Shown here: piece by piece, positions 9,370-28,496 of the stretch | How positions within the stretch are numbered: position 1 is the stretch's first letter | Layout of the letters: each line of letters opens with the position of its first letter | Translations under genes and position numbers: made by a program | Notes under the pieces: model-generated | The model's input: only the letters and a program-made list of their open reading frames with translations | Told to the model about the DNA's origin: nothing | The model's database searches: none | Source of the DNA: Candidatus Saccharimonadota bacterium | GTDB taxonomy: Bacteria; Patescibacteriota; Gracilibacteria; BD1-5; UBA2023 | Reading direction: 5' to 3' | Assembly (NCBI GenBank): GCA_963706795.1 | Contig: OY970170.1 | Span: 450,001-482,000 of the forward strand | DNA length: 32,000 bases

Positions 9370-11016
9370 TTAGTACATTCCGCCCATTCATCCCATGCCG
9401 CCCATAGCTTCGTGGTTATGGGATTCTGATTGGTCCTTTTTTGGGGCTTCGACGATGAGCGCCTCAGTCGTGAGGAACATTCCGGCAATACTGATCGCGT
9501 TTTCGAGTGCGCAGCGGGCAACCTTTTTTGGATCGATGATACCAGATTTGATCATATCAACGAAGGTATCAGTTGCGGCATCATATCCGTAATTAATATC
9601 TGCGGATTTTACGATATCAGAGACAACAAGGGCACCTTCTTTGCCTGCATTTTCAGCAATCTGACGAACAGGATATGCGAGGGCTCGGGCCACGATCTGT
9701 GCACCAATCTCTTGATCACGGTTTGTGAGGCGGAGATTTGCGAGTGCACTTGATGCTTTGAGCAGCGCGACTCCTCCACCAGCAACAACACCTTCTTCGA
9801 CCGCAGCCTTAGTAGCATTGAGAGCATCTTCGATACGGAGCTTTTTTTCTTTCATCTCGACTTCGGAGGCGGCACCGACTTTGATGACGGCGATTCCACC
9901 AGCGAGCTTCGCGAGACGCTCAGCAAATTTTTCACGATCGTAGTCAGATTTGGTGTTTTCGATCTGAGAACGGATCTCATTAACGCGGCGAGCAATGAGG
10001 TCTTTGTCACCAGCACCACCGATGATAGTTGTTGAATCCTTCTTTGCGACAACCGTCTTGGCATGTCCGAGATGCTCAAGTGAAGCGATATCGAGTTTGT
10101 AGCCGAGTTCTTCGGTAATAACGGTCGCACCAGTGAGTACCGCAAGATCCTTGAGCATTTCTTTTTTGCGATCTCCAAATCCTGGAGCCTTGATCGCGAG
10201 AACATTGAGAATTCCCTTGAGCTTATTGAGGATGATACCAGTGAGCGCATCTCCGTCGACGTCATCTGCGATGATGACGAGATCGCGTTTCCCGTTACCA
10301 GCAAGTTGCTCGAGTACTGGGAGGATATCTTTGAGAGAAGAGACTTTTTTGTCCGTGATGAGGATATGAGCATCACTGATGCGTGCCTCCATTTTTTCGG
10401 CATCACTGACCATATATGGAGAGATATATCCGGTTTCAAATTTCATTCCTTCGGTAAGCTCGACTGCGAGACCAAAGGTTTGACCTTCTTCAACCGTGAT
10501 TACTCCGTCTTTTCCGACCTTGTCCATAGCGTCAGAGATGATAGCTCCGACTTCGGCATCTTGGGCAGAGATGGTCGCTACTTGAGCGATTTCTTCTTTG
10601 CTTGAGAGCATTTTTGCATTTTTAGCGAGCTCGATCTCGATGATCTCGCCTGCCTTCTTCATACCGTTCTTGAGCTCAATTGCGTTGATCCCTGAGCGGA
10701 TTTCGCGGAGACCTTCTTTGATCATCGCGTAAGTAAGAAGTGTCGCAGTTGTTGTTCCGTCACCAGCTGCGTCATTTGTGCGAGATGCTGCTTCTTTAAT
10801 AAGCTCGGCCCCCATGTTTTCGATTTTGTTTTCGAGCTCGATTTCTTTGGCGATCGTAACACCATCGTTGGTGATCTGTGGAGCTCCGTAGCCCTTAGAA
10901 AAAATGACATTGCGTCCTTTTGGGCCAATCGTCGCGGTAACCGTCTTTGCGACCTTCTCGATACCTGCGAACATCTGAAGACGTGCTTCGTCTCCAAAAT
11001 GGATGTTTTTAGACAT
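9370..11016 (-). CDS. groL: chaperonin GroEL (548 aa)
   Basis: The true start is [12 protein letters not shown] at 11016; the track ORF start at 11178 overlaps groES. The body matches GroEL throughout ([32 protein letters not shown]). The C-terminus reads AMGGMG[TGA]MGGMY, ending at TAA 9370-72, which restores the classic GGM repeat only if TGA is Gly. Confidence 0.97.
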
Positions 11017-11041: not shown

Positions 11042-11332
11042 TTATGCGACCTTTGCCAAGATATATTCGTATGCAACGATCTTGTATTTTTGACCGTCGA
11101 GCTCGACTTCATCGCCTGAATACTGTCCAGAGAGGACTTTGTCGCCCGTTTTGAGATCAATAGTGACCAATTTGCCATCCTTGTCGGTTTTACCAGGGCC
11201 TACGGCAACGACTTCGTAGATATATGGTCGCTCTTTGTTGGCTGATGCTGGGAGAATAATACCGCTCTTCGTGACATTTTCTGCTTCGAGACCCTTGAGA
11301 AGGACGCGATCCGAAAGTGGTTCGATATGCAT
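11042..11332 (-). CDS. groS: co-chaperonin GroES (96 aa)
   Basis: MHIEPLSDRVLLK...GIILP...YIYEVVAVGPG...GDKVL..YSG..V. It lies immediately upstream of groEL. TAA stop. Confidence 0.95.
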   Translation of the reverse strand: MHIEPLSDRVLLKGLEAENVTKSGIILPASANKERPYIYEVVAVGPGKTDKDGKLVTIDLKTGDKVLSGQYSGDEVELDGQKYKIVAYEYILAKVA

Positions 11333-11355
11333 AAATACTGAATCTTAGGATTAAA

Positions 11356-11394
11356 TTAGCATCGGAATTATATACGTGCTAAAATCTGAGTCAA
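11356..11394 (-). promoter_or_regulatory. groESL promoter (TTGACT-N16-TATAAT) overlapping a degenerate CIRCE-like inverted repeat
   Basis: The minus strand reads TTGACTcagatTTTAGCACGTATATAATTCCGATGCTAAttt. The -35 is at 11389-94 and the -10 at 11367-72. TTAGCAcgt-N9-cgaTGCTAA at 11356-82 resembles CIRCE (TTAGCACTC-N9-GAGTGCTAA). Confidence 0.6.
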
Positions 11395-11413
11395 GAAAAT
11401 ATCCGAGACAGAT

Positions 11414-11441
11414 TTGACAACCCGATCTAAAATCGTACAAA
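11414..11441 (+). promoter_or_regulatory. candidate sigma70-type promoter at the left edge of the SD-led islet
   Basis: TTGACA (11414-19), a 16 nt spacer, then TACAAA (11436-41). Confidence 0.3.
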
Positions 11442-11631
11442 TGTGCTGTCAATCGTCATCTTACCGGATGAAAAGAGGATACTTGGAGGGTTACGATTAT
11501 CGTCGTGATTCTCTGAGGCAAAAGCTTTTCCCGTCAATTCTTCATCAAAAATTAATGGAGGTTTGTATGACTGAAGAATAAACCCTTCAGGAAGCGTGGT
11601 ATTAATGAACATCACGAGAAAGGAAGAAGTT

Positions 11632-12042
11632 ATGCAAAAAGGTATGAGCATCATCTGCATTGTCGGCATGTGCGCAGCAAGCATGGCATCCGCCATGAAT
11701 CTGTCAGTAGCTCTGTCGGCAGAACATGCAATCGAAGGAAAGGTGTTGGTAGTAAGTCAGCCTGGCGAAGGCCTGGATCCGGTCGTCTCCGAAGTTACAC
11801 AACAGGAAATGATCGCACTGATTTGCCCATATCAACTGGAAAAACTGGAAGTCGGCATCTTCGATGTTGGCAAGCTGCAAGCTTCACTTGTAGACAATCA
11901 AAATCCAGTTCTGCCAAATTCTGCCACTCGCCACCCCGCGGTGCTGGGCGTTCAGTCGCCTATCAGCGCACAGCAAAAAAATATCAAAGTCGCCTACAGT
12001 GCCAGCCGTATCGACAAGCCAGGCGGGCATCTCCGCTTGTAG
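11632..12042 (+). CDS. hypothetical secreted protein (136 aa), orphan
   Basis: SD-like AAGGA lies 7 nt upstream of ATG 11632. The N-terminus MQKGMSIICIVGMCAASMASA resembles a signal peptide. No in-frame TGA; TAG stop at 12040-42. I recognise no family. Confidence 0.6.
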   Translation: MQKGMSIICIVGMCAASMASAMNLSVALSAEHAIEGKVLVVSQPGEGLDPVVSEVTQQEMIALICPYQLEKLEVGIFDVGKLQASLVDNQNPVLPNSATRHPAVLGVQSPISAQQKNIKVAYSASRIDKPGGHLRL

Positions 12043-12158
12043 CTCGGTCAGGCCGTTGTAAAGTAATAGAAGTTGTCCCGCTCACGACCCGCACTTGGAC
12101 CCTCAAATGTTTTACCCAAGAGCGAGCCGTGAGCATCCCTTCAACACAGGAGTAAACC

Positions 12159-12440
12159 ATGAGTCAGCTCGGTTCGACTATCCAAACCGCCATATTATCG
12201 GTAGATTGGTCAGTTCGTAAACTCGCCGAGAAATCAGGTTTATCTCCAAGTGCGATTTCCGCAATTGAAGATGGCAAAAACCAGATTTCTTTGCGGAGCA
12301 TGGAAAAAGTTGCAAAAGCTTTCGGTATTAAAGTCGAAGAACTCTTCATTCTTGATGAAAATTTGACTGAATTACAAAACGAAGTAGCAAGACTGCAGCT
12401 AGAAATGAAAGAAATGGTACTAAAAGTTGTTCTGTTGTAA
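12159..12440 (+). CDS. XRE-family helix-turn-helix regulator with C-terminal coiled coil (93 aa)
   Basis: AGGAG lies 6 nt upstream of ATG 12159. HTH_3 pattern: SVRKLAEKSGLSPSAISAIEDGKNQISLRSMEKVAKAFGIKVEELF. The C-terminus LTELQNEVARLQLEMKEM has heptad character. TAA stop. Confidence 0.8.
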   Translation: MSQLGSTIQTAILSVDWSVRKLAEKSGLSPSAISAIEDGKNQISLRSMEKVAKAFGIKVEELFILDENLTELQNEVARLQLEMKEMVLKVVLL

Positions 12441-12460
12441 TTCAAATTAAGGAGGATTCC

Positions 12461-12502
12461 ATGGATCATGCACCCAAGCTGGACGAGCTGAGCTTGGTTT
12501 AA
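12461..12502 (+). CDS. micro-ORF 1 (13 codons, MDHAPKLDELSLV)
   Basis: AAGGAGG (12449-55), a 5 nt spacer, ATG 12461, TAA stop at 12500-02. Confidence 0.4.
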   Translation: MDHAPKLDELSLV

Positions 12503-12538
12503 TCAGCCGAAGTTTCGTAAAAACGCAGGAGTAATAAA

Positions 12539-12565
12539 ATGTTGGACAAAAAACCTGGTCTTTGA
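12539..12565 (+). CDS. micro-ORF 2 (8 codons, MLDKKPGL, if TGA is a stop; 31 codons under table 25)
   Basis: AGGAG (12527-31), a 7 nt spacer, ATG 12539, TGA at 12563-65. Confidence 0.25.
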   Translation: MLDKKPGL

Positions 12566-12600
12566 TGTAGTATAGCAATACTCGGATTAAGGAGAATCTC

Positions 12601-12642
12601 ATGAAACGCGTCGCCAAAATGGATATTGAAATAATGGTGTAA
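12601..12642 (+). CDS. micro-ORF 3 (13 codons, MKRVAKMDIEIMV)
   Basis: AAGGAG (12589-94), a 6 nt spacer, ATG 12601, TAA stop at 12640-42. Its upstream context ATTAAGGAGnATnnCATG is shared with micro-ORF 1. Confidence 0.4.
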   Translation: MKRVAKMDIEIMV

Positions 12643-12687
12643 AAAACTGGCGTTAATAAACCCTGTCATTATCACAAGGAGCAAGAC

Positions 12688-12729
12688 ATGCCGCAAGGTT
12701 ATCTGCAATGCGTTGAGATCACGTTCTGA
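12688..12729 (+). CDS. micro-ORF 4 (13 codons, MPQGYLQCVEITF, if TGA is a stop)
   Basis: AAGGAG (12676-81), a 6 nt spacer, ATG 12688, TGA at 12727-29. Under table 25 it would read through the terminator into the secD start region, which seems implausible. Confidence 0.3.
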   Translation: MPQGYLQCVEITF

Positions 12730-12782
12730 TCTCATGCGTATAATTCTCAAAATATAGAATACACCCACGCCCAGAGGGCAAT

Positions 12783-12807
12783 AACCGGATCTCAGATCCG
12801 GTTTTTT
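12783..12807 (+). terminator. rho-independent terminator closing the islet
   Basis: aaccggatc (12783-91) pairs with gatccggtt (12795-803), followed by a T-run to 12807. Confidence 0.85.
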
Positions 12808-12860
12808 CATGCCCAAACGTGTAAAATACGTGCAATATACAATTCTTCACCAAGCTTTTT

Positions 12861-12888
12861 TTGACCTTTGGTGGGTTTTCTCTATACT
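12861..12888 (+). promoter_or_regulatory. candidate secD promoter TTGACC-N16-TATACT
   Basis: The -35 is at 12861-66 and the -10 at 12883-88, about 31 nt upstream of the secD ATG. Confidence 0.5.
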
Positions 12889-12919
12889 TCGCGACAACTT
12901 TCATTTTGCATTTTTTCCT

Positions 12920-14707
12920 ATGAAGTGACTCGGCATTAAACTCGCATCCATCGTTATTTTAACGGTTCTTGCATTCGGATTTGTATTTCCTTGGAAGCAC
13001 TTTGGTGTGGACACAGGAGTGCAGCTTCCTGATTTTAAACTCGGACTCGACCTCCATGGTGGAGTAGAACTCGATTACAAGATCGATTTCGATGACCTCA
13101 AAAAACGAGGAACCGCCTATGTTGAACGTGATGTGAGCGAAGGACTCAAGTCCATCGTTGAAAAGCGCGTTAATTCTCTCGGTACGGCAGAGCCAACGAT
13201 TTCTACTGCAAGCTACGGTGGAGAATCTCACATCATCGTGCAGATCCCAACTCAGAGCTTCGCCGGAGAAAATCTCTCTGATGCTGAGATCAAGGTTCGT
13301 AATAACGAATATATCGCCAAGGCTAAGGATACTATTGGTAAGGTTGTTCGTCTCGAATTCAAAGAAAAAAAGGACACGGTTACTGATGCAGACCGAGCAG
13401 CTCGTAAGACCATTGCTGATGACGCCCACAAGGAGCTCGTAGCAAACAGCGACTTTGCAAGCATCGCTAAAAAATACGTACAGAATAACGAGAATGTTGG
13501 CTATTTCACAGGAACCGAAGCAAAAGAATCACTTCCACCCGAGCTCGCATTTACTGGCTTTACAAGCATTACAAAGACTGGACTTACAGATGTACTCCTC
13601 GGAGAAAAAACTGGAACGTACACTCTCGGTGCAGATGGAAAGCTCGTAAAATCAGCTGGAGAAAAGGCATACGTAATCGCCAATATCACTGCAATTAAGA
13701 GCGTTACAAAAGAACGTGACGTTACAGCCAGTGGAGCTACAGCTTCAGGAGCTACTAAAAAAGAAAAATACGAGACAAAAGAAATGAGCTACGAAGTCCT
13801 CTATATCAGCGAACGACCAAGCGAATGGATGGCAGCAAAGACAGCTGACGGTAAGGTACTTGATGAGAAGTATCTCTCTCGAGCAAGTGTAGGTTTCACT
13901 CAGGGCTACATGCCACAGATCGACCTTCTCTTTAATGAAGAAGGAAAGAAGATCTTCGCAGAGCTTACAAAGCGCATGATCGGGAAACCTCTCGCGATCT
14001 ACGTAGGTGGAGAGCAGCTCACAGCTCCAACGGTTCAATCAGTTATTCCAGACGGACACGCTGTAATTACTGGACAGTATTCAGCCGAAGAAGCAAAGAA
14101 GCTCGCAAATGACATCAATACTGGTATCGTTCCTGCTCCAATTTATCTCACGAGCGAACGAGCAATCGATGCAAAGATCGGAGCTGATGCTCTCACAGTA
14201 ATCATCCAGGCTGGTATTATTGGGCTTCTTGCGATCATCGTATTCCTCGTGGTATTCTACCGCGTATCTGGACTGCTTGCCGGTGTTGCACTCGTTATTT
14301 ACGGAATCCTTCTCCTTGCCATCATCAAGGCACTTGGAATCGTTCTTACACTTGCTGGTATCGCGGGTATTATCCTCTCGATCGGTCTCGCGATTGACGC
14401 GAATATCCTCATCTTCGAGCGCACAAAAGAAGCACTCCGAGATGGAGCTGACACGACTCGCGCTACGATCGTTGGATTCTCAAAGTCATGGACAGCGATC
14501 TGGGATTCGCATATTACTTCTCTCACGTCAGCGGTTATCCTCTATATTTTTGGAGTATCGCTCATTAAGGGTTTCGGTCTCGCACTTGGAATTGGTATCG
14601 CACTCTCACTCTTCACTGCTATGTGGGTATCACGCATTCTCATCCTCTCAGTAGGAAGCAAATTCAATGGACGCGAAAAAGCTTTCGTCGGACTAAGCAA
14701 GAAATAA
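12920..14707 (+). CDS. secD: protein translocase subunit SecD (595 aa)
   Basis: ATG 12920 then MK[TGA]LGIKLASIVILTVLAFGFVFPW supplies the missing N-terminal TM helix, in frame with ORF 13007..14707. LGLDLHGGVEL motif, a large periplasmic domain and a C-terminal five-TM bundle. TAA stop. Confidence 0.9.
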
Positions 14708-25750: not shown

Positions 25751-25825
25751 TGGAGCCGCTGGCGGGAATTGAACCCGCGACCTATCCCTTACCATGGGAT
25801 TGCTCTACCACTGAGCCACAGCGGC
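25751..25825 (-). tRNA. tRNA-Thr (anticodon GGU), CCA encoded
   Basis: The reverse complement folds as a cloverleaf: acceptor GCCGCTG/CAGCGGC, D stem GCTC/GAGC, anticodon stem ATCCC/GGGAT with loop AT-GGT-AA, T arm GCGGG-TTCAATT-CCCGC, and 3' TCCA. Confidence 0.93.
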
Positions 25826-28075: not shown

Positions 28076-28097
28076 AGTGTAAAAGCTGTATTAAAAT

Positions 28098-28496
28098 CGT
28101 CCACAGCATCATAAGCCGGATTCTGTACTTCGCTCTCAATCTCTCTAGGGCATGCGTCGCCGCATGTCTCAAGCAGGGTATACGCTGGGCGGTCTCGGAC
28201 CCGAACTCCCTTTGTACCATTCCCCTTGCACCACATGGGGTTTACCAACGTTCGTATGTTGCCATACGAGTCCTCGCGTAGCCGAAGCAATCTACGAGGC
28301 TTTTCACCTTTCTCCCGCCGAGGCGGGATAGTATTGTCTCTGTGGTACTTTCCGTACAACTGCTTTATGAATTATATGCAGCTGCCGCAGTCGTTATCTG
28401 CCATGCTTTCCGAGTGGTGTCCAGACTTTCCTCCCCACGCTCTGTCGGTATGCGACATACAAAAAAAGCGTGGGGTAGAGAGCGTTGCTGTGGACG
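28098..28496 (-). ncRNA. rnpB: RNase P RNA, bacterial type A
   Basis: The minus strand has a P1 pairing of CGTCCACAGCAAC (5') with GATGCTGTGGACG (3'). It also has a P3 hairpin CCCCACGC...GCGTGGGG, CR-I GAGGAAAGTCTGGACACC, GGTAAACCCCA, GTGCAAGG and CR-V ACAGAATCCGGCTTAT. Confidence 0.92.

Follow-up and report, generated by a model that had tools for sequence, protein, structure and literature searches.

A row of four SD-led micro-ORFs behind an XRE regulator gene in a Gracilibacterium with genetic code 25

The DNA considered here (the window, i.e., the whole stretch analysed, 32,000 nucleotides) belongs to a Gracilibacterium that uses genetic code 25, where TGA encodes glycine. The code is confirmed by the many long ORFs with 5-16 in-frame TGA codons and by the TGA at codon 3 of secD; TGA makes up about 10% of the glycine codons of the host. 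The spacer between groES and secD, with groEL/groES on one side and secD on the other, contains a segment of about 1.4 kb, which carries in this order an orphan 136-aa ORF (U136), an XRE regulator gene, an array of four SD-led micro-ORFs (o1 to o4 in genomic order) and a terminator. The features are as follows.

11426..12845, no strand assigned: lineage-specific content of the groES-secD spacer (boundaries +/- 50 nt), comprising the orphan ORF, the XRE gene, the micro-ORF array and the terminator
11632..12042, + strand: U136, orphan ORF of 136 aa, with an AAGGAA SD-like motif ahead of it and a TAG stop
12080..12134, + strand: inverted repeat between U136 and XRE (19-nt arms, 17-nt loop, 84% complementary)
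12159..12440, + strand: XRE/HTH_3 regulator of 93 aa; TIR CAGGAG-N6-ATG, stop TAA at 12438-12440
12449..12502, + strand: o1; AAGGAGG at 12449-12455, 5 nt, ATG at 12461, 13 codons (MDHAPKLDELSLV), TAA at 12500-12502
12527..12565, + strand: o2; AGGAG at 12527-12531, 7 nt, ATG at 12539, 8 codons (MLDKKPGL), TGA at 12563-12565
12589..12642, + strand: o3; AAGGAG at 12589-12594, 6 nt, ATG at 12601, 13 codons (MKRVAKMDIEIMV), TAA at 12640-12642
12676..12729, + strand: o4; AAGGAG at 12676-12681, 6 nt, ATG at 12688, 13 codons (MPQGYLQCVEITF), TGA at 12727-12729
12499..12735, - strand: antisense ORF of 78 aa, called as a gene in Logan, NCBI and ENA
12706..12741, + strand: strong hairpin over codons 7-13 and the TGA of o4, part of a highly structured 3' end
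12783..12809, + strand: strong intrinsic terminator at the end of the U136-XRE-array unit (9-bp stem at 12783-12803 with 5 GC pairs, 3-nt loop, T-run)

The positions and sequences of the micro-ORFs, first listed in an initial annotation of this DNA, proved exact. The SD of o1 starts 9 nt past the XRE stop, with no terminator in between. The spacing GGAG-N6-ATG is common to XRE, o1, o3 and o4, and the TIR of o2 (AACGCAGGAGTAA) matches that of XRE (AACACAGGAGTAA) at 12 of 13 positions. Four of these five TIRs have C at -1, whereas host genes prefer T there (43%). The SD-ATG core is all that the four units have in common in a MAFFT alignment, and TRF finds no tandem DNA repeat in the array. The predicted peptides with a formylated start are fMet-DHAPKLDELSLV and fMet-KRVAKMDIEIMV; the 13-mers have no hydrophobic core. 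No codon runs occur in the four peptides, which may still contain arrest motifs.

The initial annotation also pointed to a conflict between the TGA stops of o2 and o4 and the code of the host, and this conflict is real. Ending in TAA, o1 and o3 have the same length in both codes. Under code 25, o2 extends to 31 codons (TAA at 12632-12634) and overlaps the TIR of o3, and o4 extends to 83 codons, through the terminator, to a TAA at 12937-12939, 17 nt inside secD. The lengths are thus 13/8/13/13 codons under the standard code and 13/31/13/83 under the host code, where only two are equal. Three ORFs of exactly 13 codons are therefore a fact of the standard code, under which at least three of four random ATG-ORFs share a length with P ~0.002, an argument that depends on taking the TGA of o4 as a stop.

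The array is more than a chance event, as had been claimed. The 32 kb window contains 7 AGGAG-N4-9-ATG sites, as against 6.4 +/- 2.1 expected from shuffles, and five of the seven lie on one strand within 543 nt (12148-12690). Gracilibacteria loci of 987 kb and the window together (about 1 Mb) contain 246 such sites, and the array is the only same-strand cluster of at least three within 500 bp. The Poisson probability of at least five sites in 540 nt is ~1e-8, or ~4e-5 after correction for all windows. CATG is not avoided in the window, i.e., we see no sign that CATG at the start codons is a restriction or methylation signature.

Could the SD-ATG pairs be by-products of a gene on the opposite strand, where CTC CTT would encode Leu-Leu? 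The antisense ORF (78 aa, up to 105 aa) is called by gene finders, and two of the SD boxes lie in one of its frames, as H-x-(I/L)-L-L. However, its search against 5.8 G proteins retrieves only itself, it has no family match, and no promoter is predicted for it. Its codon LLR of -0.03 is ~1.7 sd lower than that of host genes (0.24 +/- 0.16), and code 25 commonly leaves frames of such length open. Such a gene would also leave the ATGs at fixed spacing unexplained, and most of o1 (12461-12498) lies outside it. We consider a real antisense gene very improbable.

The segment is lineage-specific. In the closest relative (L002; SecD 88%, GroES 90%), homology ends at about 11398-11425 and returns at about 12838-12851; the spacer measures 1587 bp here, as against 388 bp for L002 and 130-134 bp for four relatives. 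The 1.4 kb segment is missing from the spacer of L002 and of all 31 other relatives that have both genes, and the L002 spacer shows no homology to the 3' end of the cassette above that of shuffles. No DNA match to the segment was obtained in phages, plasmids or viral sequences. Searches for homologous cassettes with XRE, U136 and the antisense ORF retrieved the queries alone, and the single contig encoding XRE is identical to the window. A metagenome search for the cassette had been proposed; the pattern ATTAAGGAGRATYYCATG-N36-TAA gave two unrelated chance matches in metagenomes and zero in viral contigs, with no homologue among them. No homologous locus for the array was found in the databases searched.

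The composition of the segment (GC 44%) is that of its surroundings: its 3-mer signature ranks 141 of 306, as expected of ordinary window DNA, and no compositional sign of recent transfer was found. The lack of TGA in U136 and XRE is not significant (P = 0.23). A composition that does not mark the segment as recently foreign is a point against reading it as accessory cargo.

U136 is an orphan: among 5.8 G proteins and 1.84 G HMMER representatives it finds only itself, and it has no match in Pfam, PHROG or PADLOC. Its codon LLR (0.118) is the highest of its six frames. Its likeness to the signature/Walker B region of ABC ATPases is weak and non-significant (PDB E = 0.15), that to NCBIfam PmtA is sub-threshold (E = 0.055, against a 350-bit cut-off), and its AlphaFold model (pLDDT 31) is unusable. 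XRE is better defined. It matches Pfam HTH_3 with E = 4.7e-12 over residues 13-62, followed by one long helix at 59-92 (AlphaFold, pLDDT 83-94), which, judging from the model, could be a protein-protein interface. No close relatives of XRE were found; its distant ones are phage and ICE-type repressors of Firmicutes (31-37% identity), which we count in favour of an accessory or mobile-type module. The inverted repeat at 12080..12134 may, from its sequence, be an operator or an RNA hairpin.

These neighbours suggest that the region might be the debris of one or more degraded genes, e.g., of a toxin or an ImmA-type partner of XRE, with the micro-ORFs meaningless. Antitoxin-toxin and ImmR-ImmA orders are typical beside such XREs, and U136, with its faint ABC-ATPase likeness and lost catalytic motifs, fits decay. 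The region nevertheless has no Pfam match in any frame, even at E <= 5; relics of the genes of neighbouring spacers (an HD-domain gene and genes of the type of L019, one of the high-GC relatives) were not found; and four optimally spaced SD-ATG pairs are unlike products of gene decay. We regard this origin as distinctly unlikely. Among the tests for relics, the code-25 product of o2 has an eye-catching match to the MILQKPDELGLSIP N-terminus, which is not significant (P = 0.10 and 0.34).

The array must also be viewed against the habits of its host. SD 5-mers precede 2.9% of 930 long ORFs of the host clade, against a background of 3.8%, and G is depleted at -20 to -1 of its gene starts; the clade does not use SD at gene starts. 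In about 1 Mb, an AGGAG precedes 29 candidate ORFs with 60 aa or more, most of which look like shadow ORFs; by our reading, fewer than 10 are plausible genes. The earlier suggestion that the array is decoded unlike host genes or is non-functional in this host is strengthened by this lack of SD use in the clade and by the orphan, lineage-specific character of the 1.4 kb segment. Still, strong SDs are not exclusive to standard-code DNA, since the groES-secD spacer of the high-GC relatives L010, L012 and L019 carries two AAGGAG-led genes, one of which has a sense TGA in L010 and L019. The predicted phages of Gracilibacteria are mostly compatible with code 11 and avoid TGA (PMC10746230).

The first and third ORFs in genomic order had been suggested to be duplicates, and the comparison agrees with this. 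They match at 14 of the 20 positions ahead of the ATG and at 16 of 36 nt of coding sequence (P ~0.012; 6, 7 and 3 matches by codon position), and their in-register BLOSUM score has P = 0.014. The third codon positions are at the random level (3/12), with K6, D8 and V13 kept via synonymous differences, and both ORFs retain the SD, the ATG, the length of 13 codons and the TAA stop; o4 is unrelated to either. From their sequences, o1 and o3 resemble diverged coding paralogues, the likeness being modestly significant.

It is tempting to conclude that o1 and o3 are functional micropeptide genes adapted to the host, perhaps together with o2 and o4 in their longer code-25 forms. They might modulate XRE or serve as signals, and their strong SDs would secure them privileged translation where SD is otherwise not used. 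The code-independent stops of o1 and o3 agree with this, as does what the two have kept (SD, ATG, length and three residues) despite saturated synonymous sites; the composition of the segment matches the host, related genomes have SD-led accessory genes of their own, and the modelled C-terminal helix of XRE offers a possible interface. However, the peptides do not resemble the XRE C-terminus significantly (P = 0.19-0.23); no gene for processing, export or a receptor is recognisable in the vicinity; and the pattern searches of metagenomes and viral contigs yielded no second occurrence. To our knowledge, 13 residues are fewer than in any characterised trans-acting bacterial peptide gene product, mccA-type precursors excepted, and this, too, counts against such genes. 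We consider them possible but doubtful.

The 3' end differs from the rest of the array. The sequence 12700-12812 folds with -37.1 kcal/mol (z = -5.5), a value reached by 0 of 200 shuffles, whereas folding of the region as a whole is on a level with shuffles (z = -1.1) and the o1-o3 region is unstructured, as expected of mRNA (z = 0.2-0.3 and -1.1). The hairpin at 12706-12741 and the terminator fold independently. Alternative pairings are short (5-7 bp) and GATC-based; one of them joins 12714-12725 with 12783-12794. No gene lies between o4 and the terminator, and secD has a promoter of its own (12861-12888), downstream of the terminator and conserved in L002.

A cis-acting role as a leader or antitermination device, in which ribosomes on the 83-codon form of o4 would suppress termination and couple the cassette to secD, was also considered. 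The o4 frame stays open for 69 codons beyond its TGA, the end of o4 lies in the strong hairpin adjoining the terminator, and 12714-12725 can alternatively pair with 12783-12794. Yet an open frame of this length is expected by chance with a probability of ~0.06 under code 25 (our estimate, with TAA + TAG at ~4%), and the extension has a poor codon score (-0.096). The alternative pairings reflect the self-complementarity of GATC and show no attenuator design, secD has the promoter of its own past the terminator, and relatives without the cassette have and express secD without any such element. We find coupling to secD hardly probable, on a par with the antisense gene.

The least probable explanation, in our opinion, is a non-coding RNA, either an sRNA derived from a 3'-UTR or a sponge that captures a protein or 30S subunits on its GGA/AGGAG boxes. 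It would account for several AGGAG boxes followed by a terminator and for the strongly structured last 110 nt. On the other hand, Rfam gives nothing at the gathering score in the region, only noise at E <= 10, and ARAGORN reports no tmRNA or tRNA; the fold of the region as a whole is again that of shuffles, the predicted accessibility of the boxes and TIRs is unremarkable, and an ATG at SD spacing after every box would be needless for a protein sponge.

The explanation we prefer, tentatively and at somewhat less than even chances, is that the four micro-ORFs are minicistrons that depend on SD, close an XRE operon of accessory or mobile type and are only partly decodable here. The SD starts, the C at -1, the two TGA stops and the lengths that are equal in the standard code only are all unlike host genes, and for this reason we read the array as accessory cargo. 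U136, XRE, o1, o2, o3, o4 and the terminator would form one transcription unit, presumably transcribed from a + strand promoter region adjoining the groES control region, with the micro-ORFs promoter-distal. Each minicistron would draw ribosomes independently via its (A/C)AGGAG box, which keeps a set distance to the ATG. The putative paralogues o1 and o3 would give 13-residue peptides in any code; o2 and o4 would give short products under the standard code only. In the host, o2 would be read on for 31 codons across the start of o3, and o4 would be read into the terminator hairpin, with a non-stop or 83-codon product. We presume that the array is carried by an XRE module of accessory, mobile-element or phage-repressor type and was shaped at least partly under translation rules other than those of the host, and that at most o1 and o3 can still work as designed. 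A point against this reading is that useless DNA is usually lost from small CPR genomes, so that some present function would be expected.

A bolder proposal, which we think unlikely, is that o1 and o3 represent genes of a new kind, i.e., SD-dependent cistrons of 13 codons for micropeptides, which share a transcript with a coiled-coil XRE repressor in a CPR accessory cassette. The SD boxes would serve as a privileged route to ribosomes where host genes start without SD, and the peptides would act in trans, e.g., on the XRE module. In a more exotic variant of this proposal, the decoding of TGA as Gly would let o4 run across the terminator and so link the cassette with secD.

If translated, the minicistrons would rank with the shortest genes known to have starts of their own, and no such gene would have been described before from a CPR bacterium with code 25. 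The locus is a natural test of whether the ribosomes of a lineage that has dropped SD still answer a perfect one, and of the fate of TGA-ended foreign or accessory cistrons where TGA is glycine (read-through or non-stop rescue). If not translated, it would still be a clear case of accessory DNA with translation signals that misfit the host, and would show that its public annotation as an antisense hypothetical protein is probably wrong.

Comparison with known systems begins with the leader peptides of attenuators (trpL of 14 aa, pheL of 15 aa, ermCL of 19 aa, cat/cmlA leaders of 9 aa). With these the array shares a length of 8-19 codons, a strong SD and the proximity of hairpins and an intrinsic terminator. 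However, leaders precede the regulated gene and are tied to mutually exclusive RNA structures, whereas the array comes after the sole regulator gene, has nothing before the terminator and lacks the 1:2/2:3/3:4 logic. The proposal of tandem leader peptides is not supported: the unit has no downstream regulated gene (secD having its own promoter), no mutually exclusive structures and no regulatory codon runs.

Peptide signalling of the RRNPP type (Rgg-SHP, AimR-AimP) likewise places an XRE-type HTH regulator beside a short peptide gene. Its receptors, however, are ~280-390 aa long with a peptide-binding repeat (TPR-like) domain, and its propeptides have 20-45 aa. XRE, with 93 aa, consists of an HTH and one helix without a repeat domain, and the AimR model matches it with E = 0.012 in the HTH region only. 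The earlier suggestion that a peptide signal is paired with the HTH protein is thus not supported as far as RRNPP signalling is concerned.

In type VI retrons, the order is SP toxin, HTH antitoxin, RT, and the SPs of the two characterised systems (55 and 79 aa) are encoded ahead of the HTH gene (bioRxiv 10.1101/2025.10.22.683967, 10.64898/2026.04.27.721009). The likeness is a small Cro/C1-type HTH beside a small-protein gene, and XRE scores 9e-16 against the PADLOC HTH_VI profile. This profile is non-specific: SinR scores 3e-18, phage repressors ~1e-15 and HipB 4e-11, i.e., unrelated XREs score similarly or better. The groES-secD spacer contains no RT-sized ORF, and the retron was rejected on the scores of these control XREs and the lack of a reverse transcriptase. 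An msr-msd RNA or hyRNA gave no Rfam match; the candidate structured elements of the locus are the 3' end (z = -5.5) and the inverted repeat at 12080-12134. A type II toxin-antitoxin system is likewise not supported, with no match to a Pfam, PADLOC or NCBIfam toxin family in any frame of 12441-12900 or in U136. At the locus we found no member of an RNA family, no attenuator logic, no retron, no receptor of the RRNPP type and no antisense protein with conservation.

SinR-SinI resembles the locus in its small XRE regulator with a C-terminal helical interface and in very small neighbouring cistrons, although SinI has 57 aa and shares its helical hook with SinR; our peptides match the XRE helix no better than expected by chance, and SinI-like mimicry was set aside. 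The lambda bar minigenes (an SD and ORFs of 2-3 codons, acting by peptidyl-tRNA drop-off) are also SD-led ORFs far below gene length, on mobile DNA and with no obvious product function. They differ in length, 13 codons exceeding the known length of drop-off toxicity.

In its layout, the array is like the psm-alpha operon of Staphylococcus aureus, with its four tandem SD-led genes for phenol-soluble modulins of 20-22 aa: in both, four tiny cistrons with separate SDs follow one another on a single transcript (predicted here) up to a terminator, and signal peptides are lacking. The modulins are amphipathic helices, clearly alike and exported by the Pmt ABC transporter. The array, known here from DNA alone, encodes 13-aa peptides, two of four of which are alike, and has no recognisable transporter, U136 being like ABC ATPases, PmtA among them, at a sub-threshold level only. 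With only o1 and o3 alike (P = 0.014), o4 unrelated and 13 aa as against ~20 aa or more, it was not accepted as a PSM-like peptide operon. With translation signals that do not suit the host and a unique stretch of DNA around it, the array looks like accessory cargo of uncertain use rather than a regulatory device of the host.

Four AGGAG-led micro-ORFs, o1-o4, stand behind the gene of a 93-residue HTH_3 regulator (XRE), and their sequence is exactly as the initial annotation gave it, with three of 13 codons. The features of this segment are the following.

11632-12042, orphan ORF U136 (136 aa)
12080-12134, GC-rich inverted repeat between U136 and XRE, 19-nt arms, 17-nt loop
12159-12440, + strand, XRE ORF, TAA stop
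12449-12455 (AAGGAGG) with ATG 12461, + strand, o1, 13 codons, MDHAPKLDELSLV, TAA
12527 (AGGAG) with ATG 12539, + strand, o2, 8 codons, TGA
12589 (AAGGAG) with ATG 12601, + strand, o3, 13 codons, MKRVAKMDIEIMV, TAA
12676 (AAGGAG) with ATG 12688, + strand, o4, 13 codons, MPQGYLQCVEITF, TGA
12783-12809, + strand, good intrinsic terminator, 9-bp GC-rich hairpin and T-run

The Shine-Dalgarno (SD) box of o1 starts nine bases past the XRE stop. In an ATG-anchored alignment the start regions (SD box to ATG) of XRE, o1, o3 and o4 read GGAG-N6-ATG with C at -1, and the spacing in o2 is N7. The array is real and statistically exceptional, and the initial view that it is improbable by chance is borne out. 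The window holds seven AGGAG-N4-9-ATG sites (6.4 +/- 2.1 in shuffles), five of them within 12148-12690 on the same strand; the Poisson probability of five sites in 540 nt is ~1e-8, or ~4e-5 corrected for all windows. Among the 246 such sites on both strands of 987 kb of Gracilibacteria sequence, the array is the sole spot with at least three same-strand sites inside 500 bp. The equal length of three of the four ORFs has P ~0.002 in the standard code; in the host code only two micro-ORFs are equal in length.

Translation initiation in the Gracilibacteria clade seems to do without SD, as in Bacteroidetes; no paper we found makes this point for Gracilibacteria. Over ~987 kb of Gracilibacteria loci together with the window, SD motifs are slightly depleted at -20 to -4 of 930 long ORFs read in code 25: SD 5-mers precede 2.9% of them vs 3.8% of random 17-mers, and the 4-mer core 7.6% vs 12%. 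From -20 to -1 G is depleted (12-19%), T dominates at -1, and no G peak is present at -8 to -12; neither groES nor secD has an SD. There are 29 AGGAG-led candidate ORFs of at least 60 aa starting near a stop; the majority resemble shadow ORFs, and by our reading under ten could plausibly be genes. SD use being so rare, five consecutive SD-led starts are out of character for this genome.

That the host uses code 25, in which TGA is glycine, is well supported. The related loci fetched by SecD all belong to Gracilibacteria or Patescibacteria MAGs, and the array is neighboured by groEL/groES (minus strand) and secD (plus strand). Long ORFs are seen only with TGA read through (e.g., 1031 aa with 15 TGA, 592 aa with 10 TGA), codon 3 of secD is TGA, and TGA makes up ~10% of glycine codons in 20 confident genes. 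The TGA-ended micro-ORFs read on in this code, as was initially proposed: o2 extends to 31 codons, ending inside o3, and o4 to 83 codons, crossing the terminator and stopping at a TAA 17 nt into secD. Only o1 and o3 would give compact 13-residue products in this host.

The first and third micro-ORFs had been proposed to be duplicates. Of the 20 nt before the ATG they share 14, and of 36 coding positions 16 (P ~0.012; 6, 7 and 3 by codon position). K6, D8 and V13 are shared residues, each written with different synonymous codons in the two ORFs, and P is 0.014 for the BLOSUM score in register. Such a pattern fits an old pair of paralogous coding sequences or convergent selection for one unit, though with 13 codons it is suggestive only. 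No resemblance to anything was found for o2 and o4.

Shuffled sequences fold as well as the array region as a whole (z = -1.1), the o1-o3 part lacks structure (z about 0), and Rfam gives no match in the region. Its last 110 nt (12700-12812, +) are strongly structured (z = -5.5), where the 3' part of o4, TGA included, folds into a 14-bp hairpin (12706-12741, +) and two small hairpins come next, ahead of the terminator. This end also carries four GATC sites within 85 nt and a perfect TATAAT at 12739-12744. The alternative pairings near the terminator are short and all on self-complementary GATC, which is no attenuator design; the terminator follows o4 with no gene intervening, and secD is served by a conserved promoter of its own. 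The suggestion of tandem leader peptides is accordingly abandoned. Two other RNAs of the window, RNase P RNA class A (28095-28495, minus, 181 bits) and tRNA-Thr(GGT) (25751-25825, minus), are ordinary.

Over the array Logan, NCBI and ENA call an antisense 78-aa hypothetical protein (12499-12735, minus). It has no homologue and no predicted promoter, its codon score is ~1.7 sd below host genes, and it is Leu-rich, as is typical for antisense frames. With homologues missing and coding statistics weak, it is probably a miscall.

The segment lies in the groES-secD spacer at 11332-12920, whose length and content vary among the Gracilibacteria loci compared, L002-L064. In the closest relative, L002 (SecD 88%, GroES 90%), the two genes are divergent with a gap of 388 bp; the gap is 130-134 bp in L003, L005, L006 and L007 and 1587 bp in the window. 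Homology with L002 spans the groES promoter and operator to ~11425 and restarts at ~12840 at the secD promoter. The ~1.4 kb in between is lineage-specific. Besides XRE, the array and its terminator, this cassette holds U136, a possible minus-strand 61-aa ORF and the inverted repeat, a candidate XRE operator or hairpin for RNA processing. The groES promoter (11394-11367, minus, TTGACT-16-TATAAT) is overlapped by a CIRCE-like HrcA operator, TTAGCATCG-N9-ACGTGCTAA (11356-11382), kept in L002; the promoter scan also called a "+ strand promoter" at 11356-11385, which is simply the inverted repeat of this operator. An imperfect direct repeat, 11535-11565 / 12840-12870 (first 10 nt, CAATTCTTCA, identical; 71% over 31 nt), flanks 1305 bp of the cassette; it may be the scar of a target site or of recombination, or have arisen by chance. 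In the L002 spacer, 9625-9800 is moderately structured (z = -2.25), without an Rfam match, and ends in a terminator-like hairpin and T-run at a position matching the window terminator; this may mark a small transcript.

In 22 more distant loci the spacer (~0.9-1.9 kb) holds a conserved HD-domain gene, and in the high-GC loci L010, L012 and L019 (2.2-2.4 kb) an asparaginase-like gene and an unknown gene; no relics of these are detectable in the window. Both genes of the latter pair are AAGGAG-led (L019 7857, 8697; L010 2773, 3618), with a start region, CACAAGGAGTAAGCGATG, similar to those of XRE and o4, and the second gene in L010 and L019 has a TGA followed by conserved residues. Both are native to code-25 genomes, where SD-led genes are rare.

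No homologous loci of the cassette occur in the collections searched. XRE, U136 and the antisense ORF each matched itself alone among 5.8 billion proteins, an exhaustive HMMER scan of U136 over 1.84 billion representatives gave only the self-match, and the sole other XRE-bearing contig is identical to the window. The segment has no phage, plasmid or viral-contig matches (DNA or protein), and the o1/o3-unit pattern has just two unrelated chance matches in metagenomes. U136 resembles the ABC ATPase signature/Walker B region below threshold and not significantly: residues 18-59 have a faint LSGGQ/Walker B/D-loop likeness with catalytic residues replaced (MASAM, SQP). Seven of its ten glycine codons are GGC (17% in host genes), and its single-sequence structure model is unusable.

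Several features favour an origin of the cassette outside the host's own gene pool: it is lineage-specific and orphan, with SD-type start regions bearing C at -1, two TGA stops, lengths equal in the standard code only, and phage-repressor-like relatives of XRE. Most predicted Gracilibacteria phages are code 11-compatible and TGA-avoiding (PMC10746230), so DNA for both codes circulates in these hosts. Three points speak against a recent transfer from a standard-code donor: the cassette resembles the rest of the window in GC and 3-mer composition, its lack of TGA in U136 and XRE is not significant, and the spacer genes of L010, L012 and L019 are AAGGAG-led too, one of them TGA-bearing in L010 and L019. 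Code-25 Gracilibacteria thus have SD-led genes among their native accessory genes. For this reason we label the cassette "accessory or mobile-pool DNA"; the narrower claim of a standard-code origin we consider possible but rather doubtful.

The most economical account, we believe, is an accessory XRE operon in which the array would form a 3'-terminal string of SD-dependent minicistrons. As a single example known from sequence alone, it is a well-documented curiosity and not a new system. At least one direct test speaks against each of the leader-peptide, retron, toxin-relic, sponge-RNA and antisense-gene readings, and the same holds for the proposed peptide signal paired with the HTH protein in the RRNPP sense. 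Type VI retrons pair an HTH protein with a small toxic protein, and XRE matches their PADLOC HTH at 9e-16; this lead was rejected because control XRE proteins score equal or better (SinR 3e-18) and a reverse transcriptase is absent. XRE itself is an ordinary HTH_3 protein (E = 4.7e-12) whose long C-terminal helix is predicted with confidence, and its distant relatives (31-37% identity) are repressors of Firmicutes phages and one ImmR-ImmA-integrase module.
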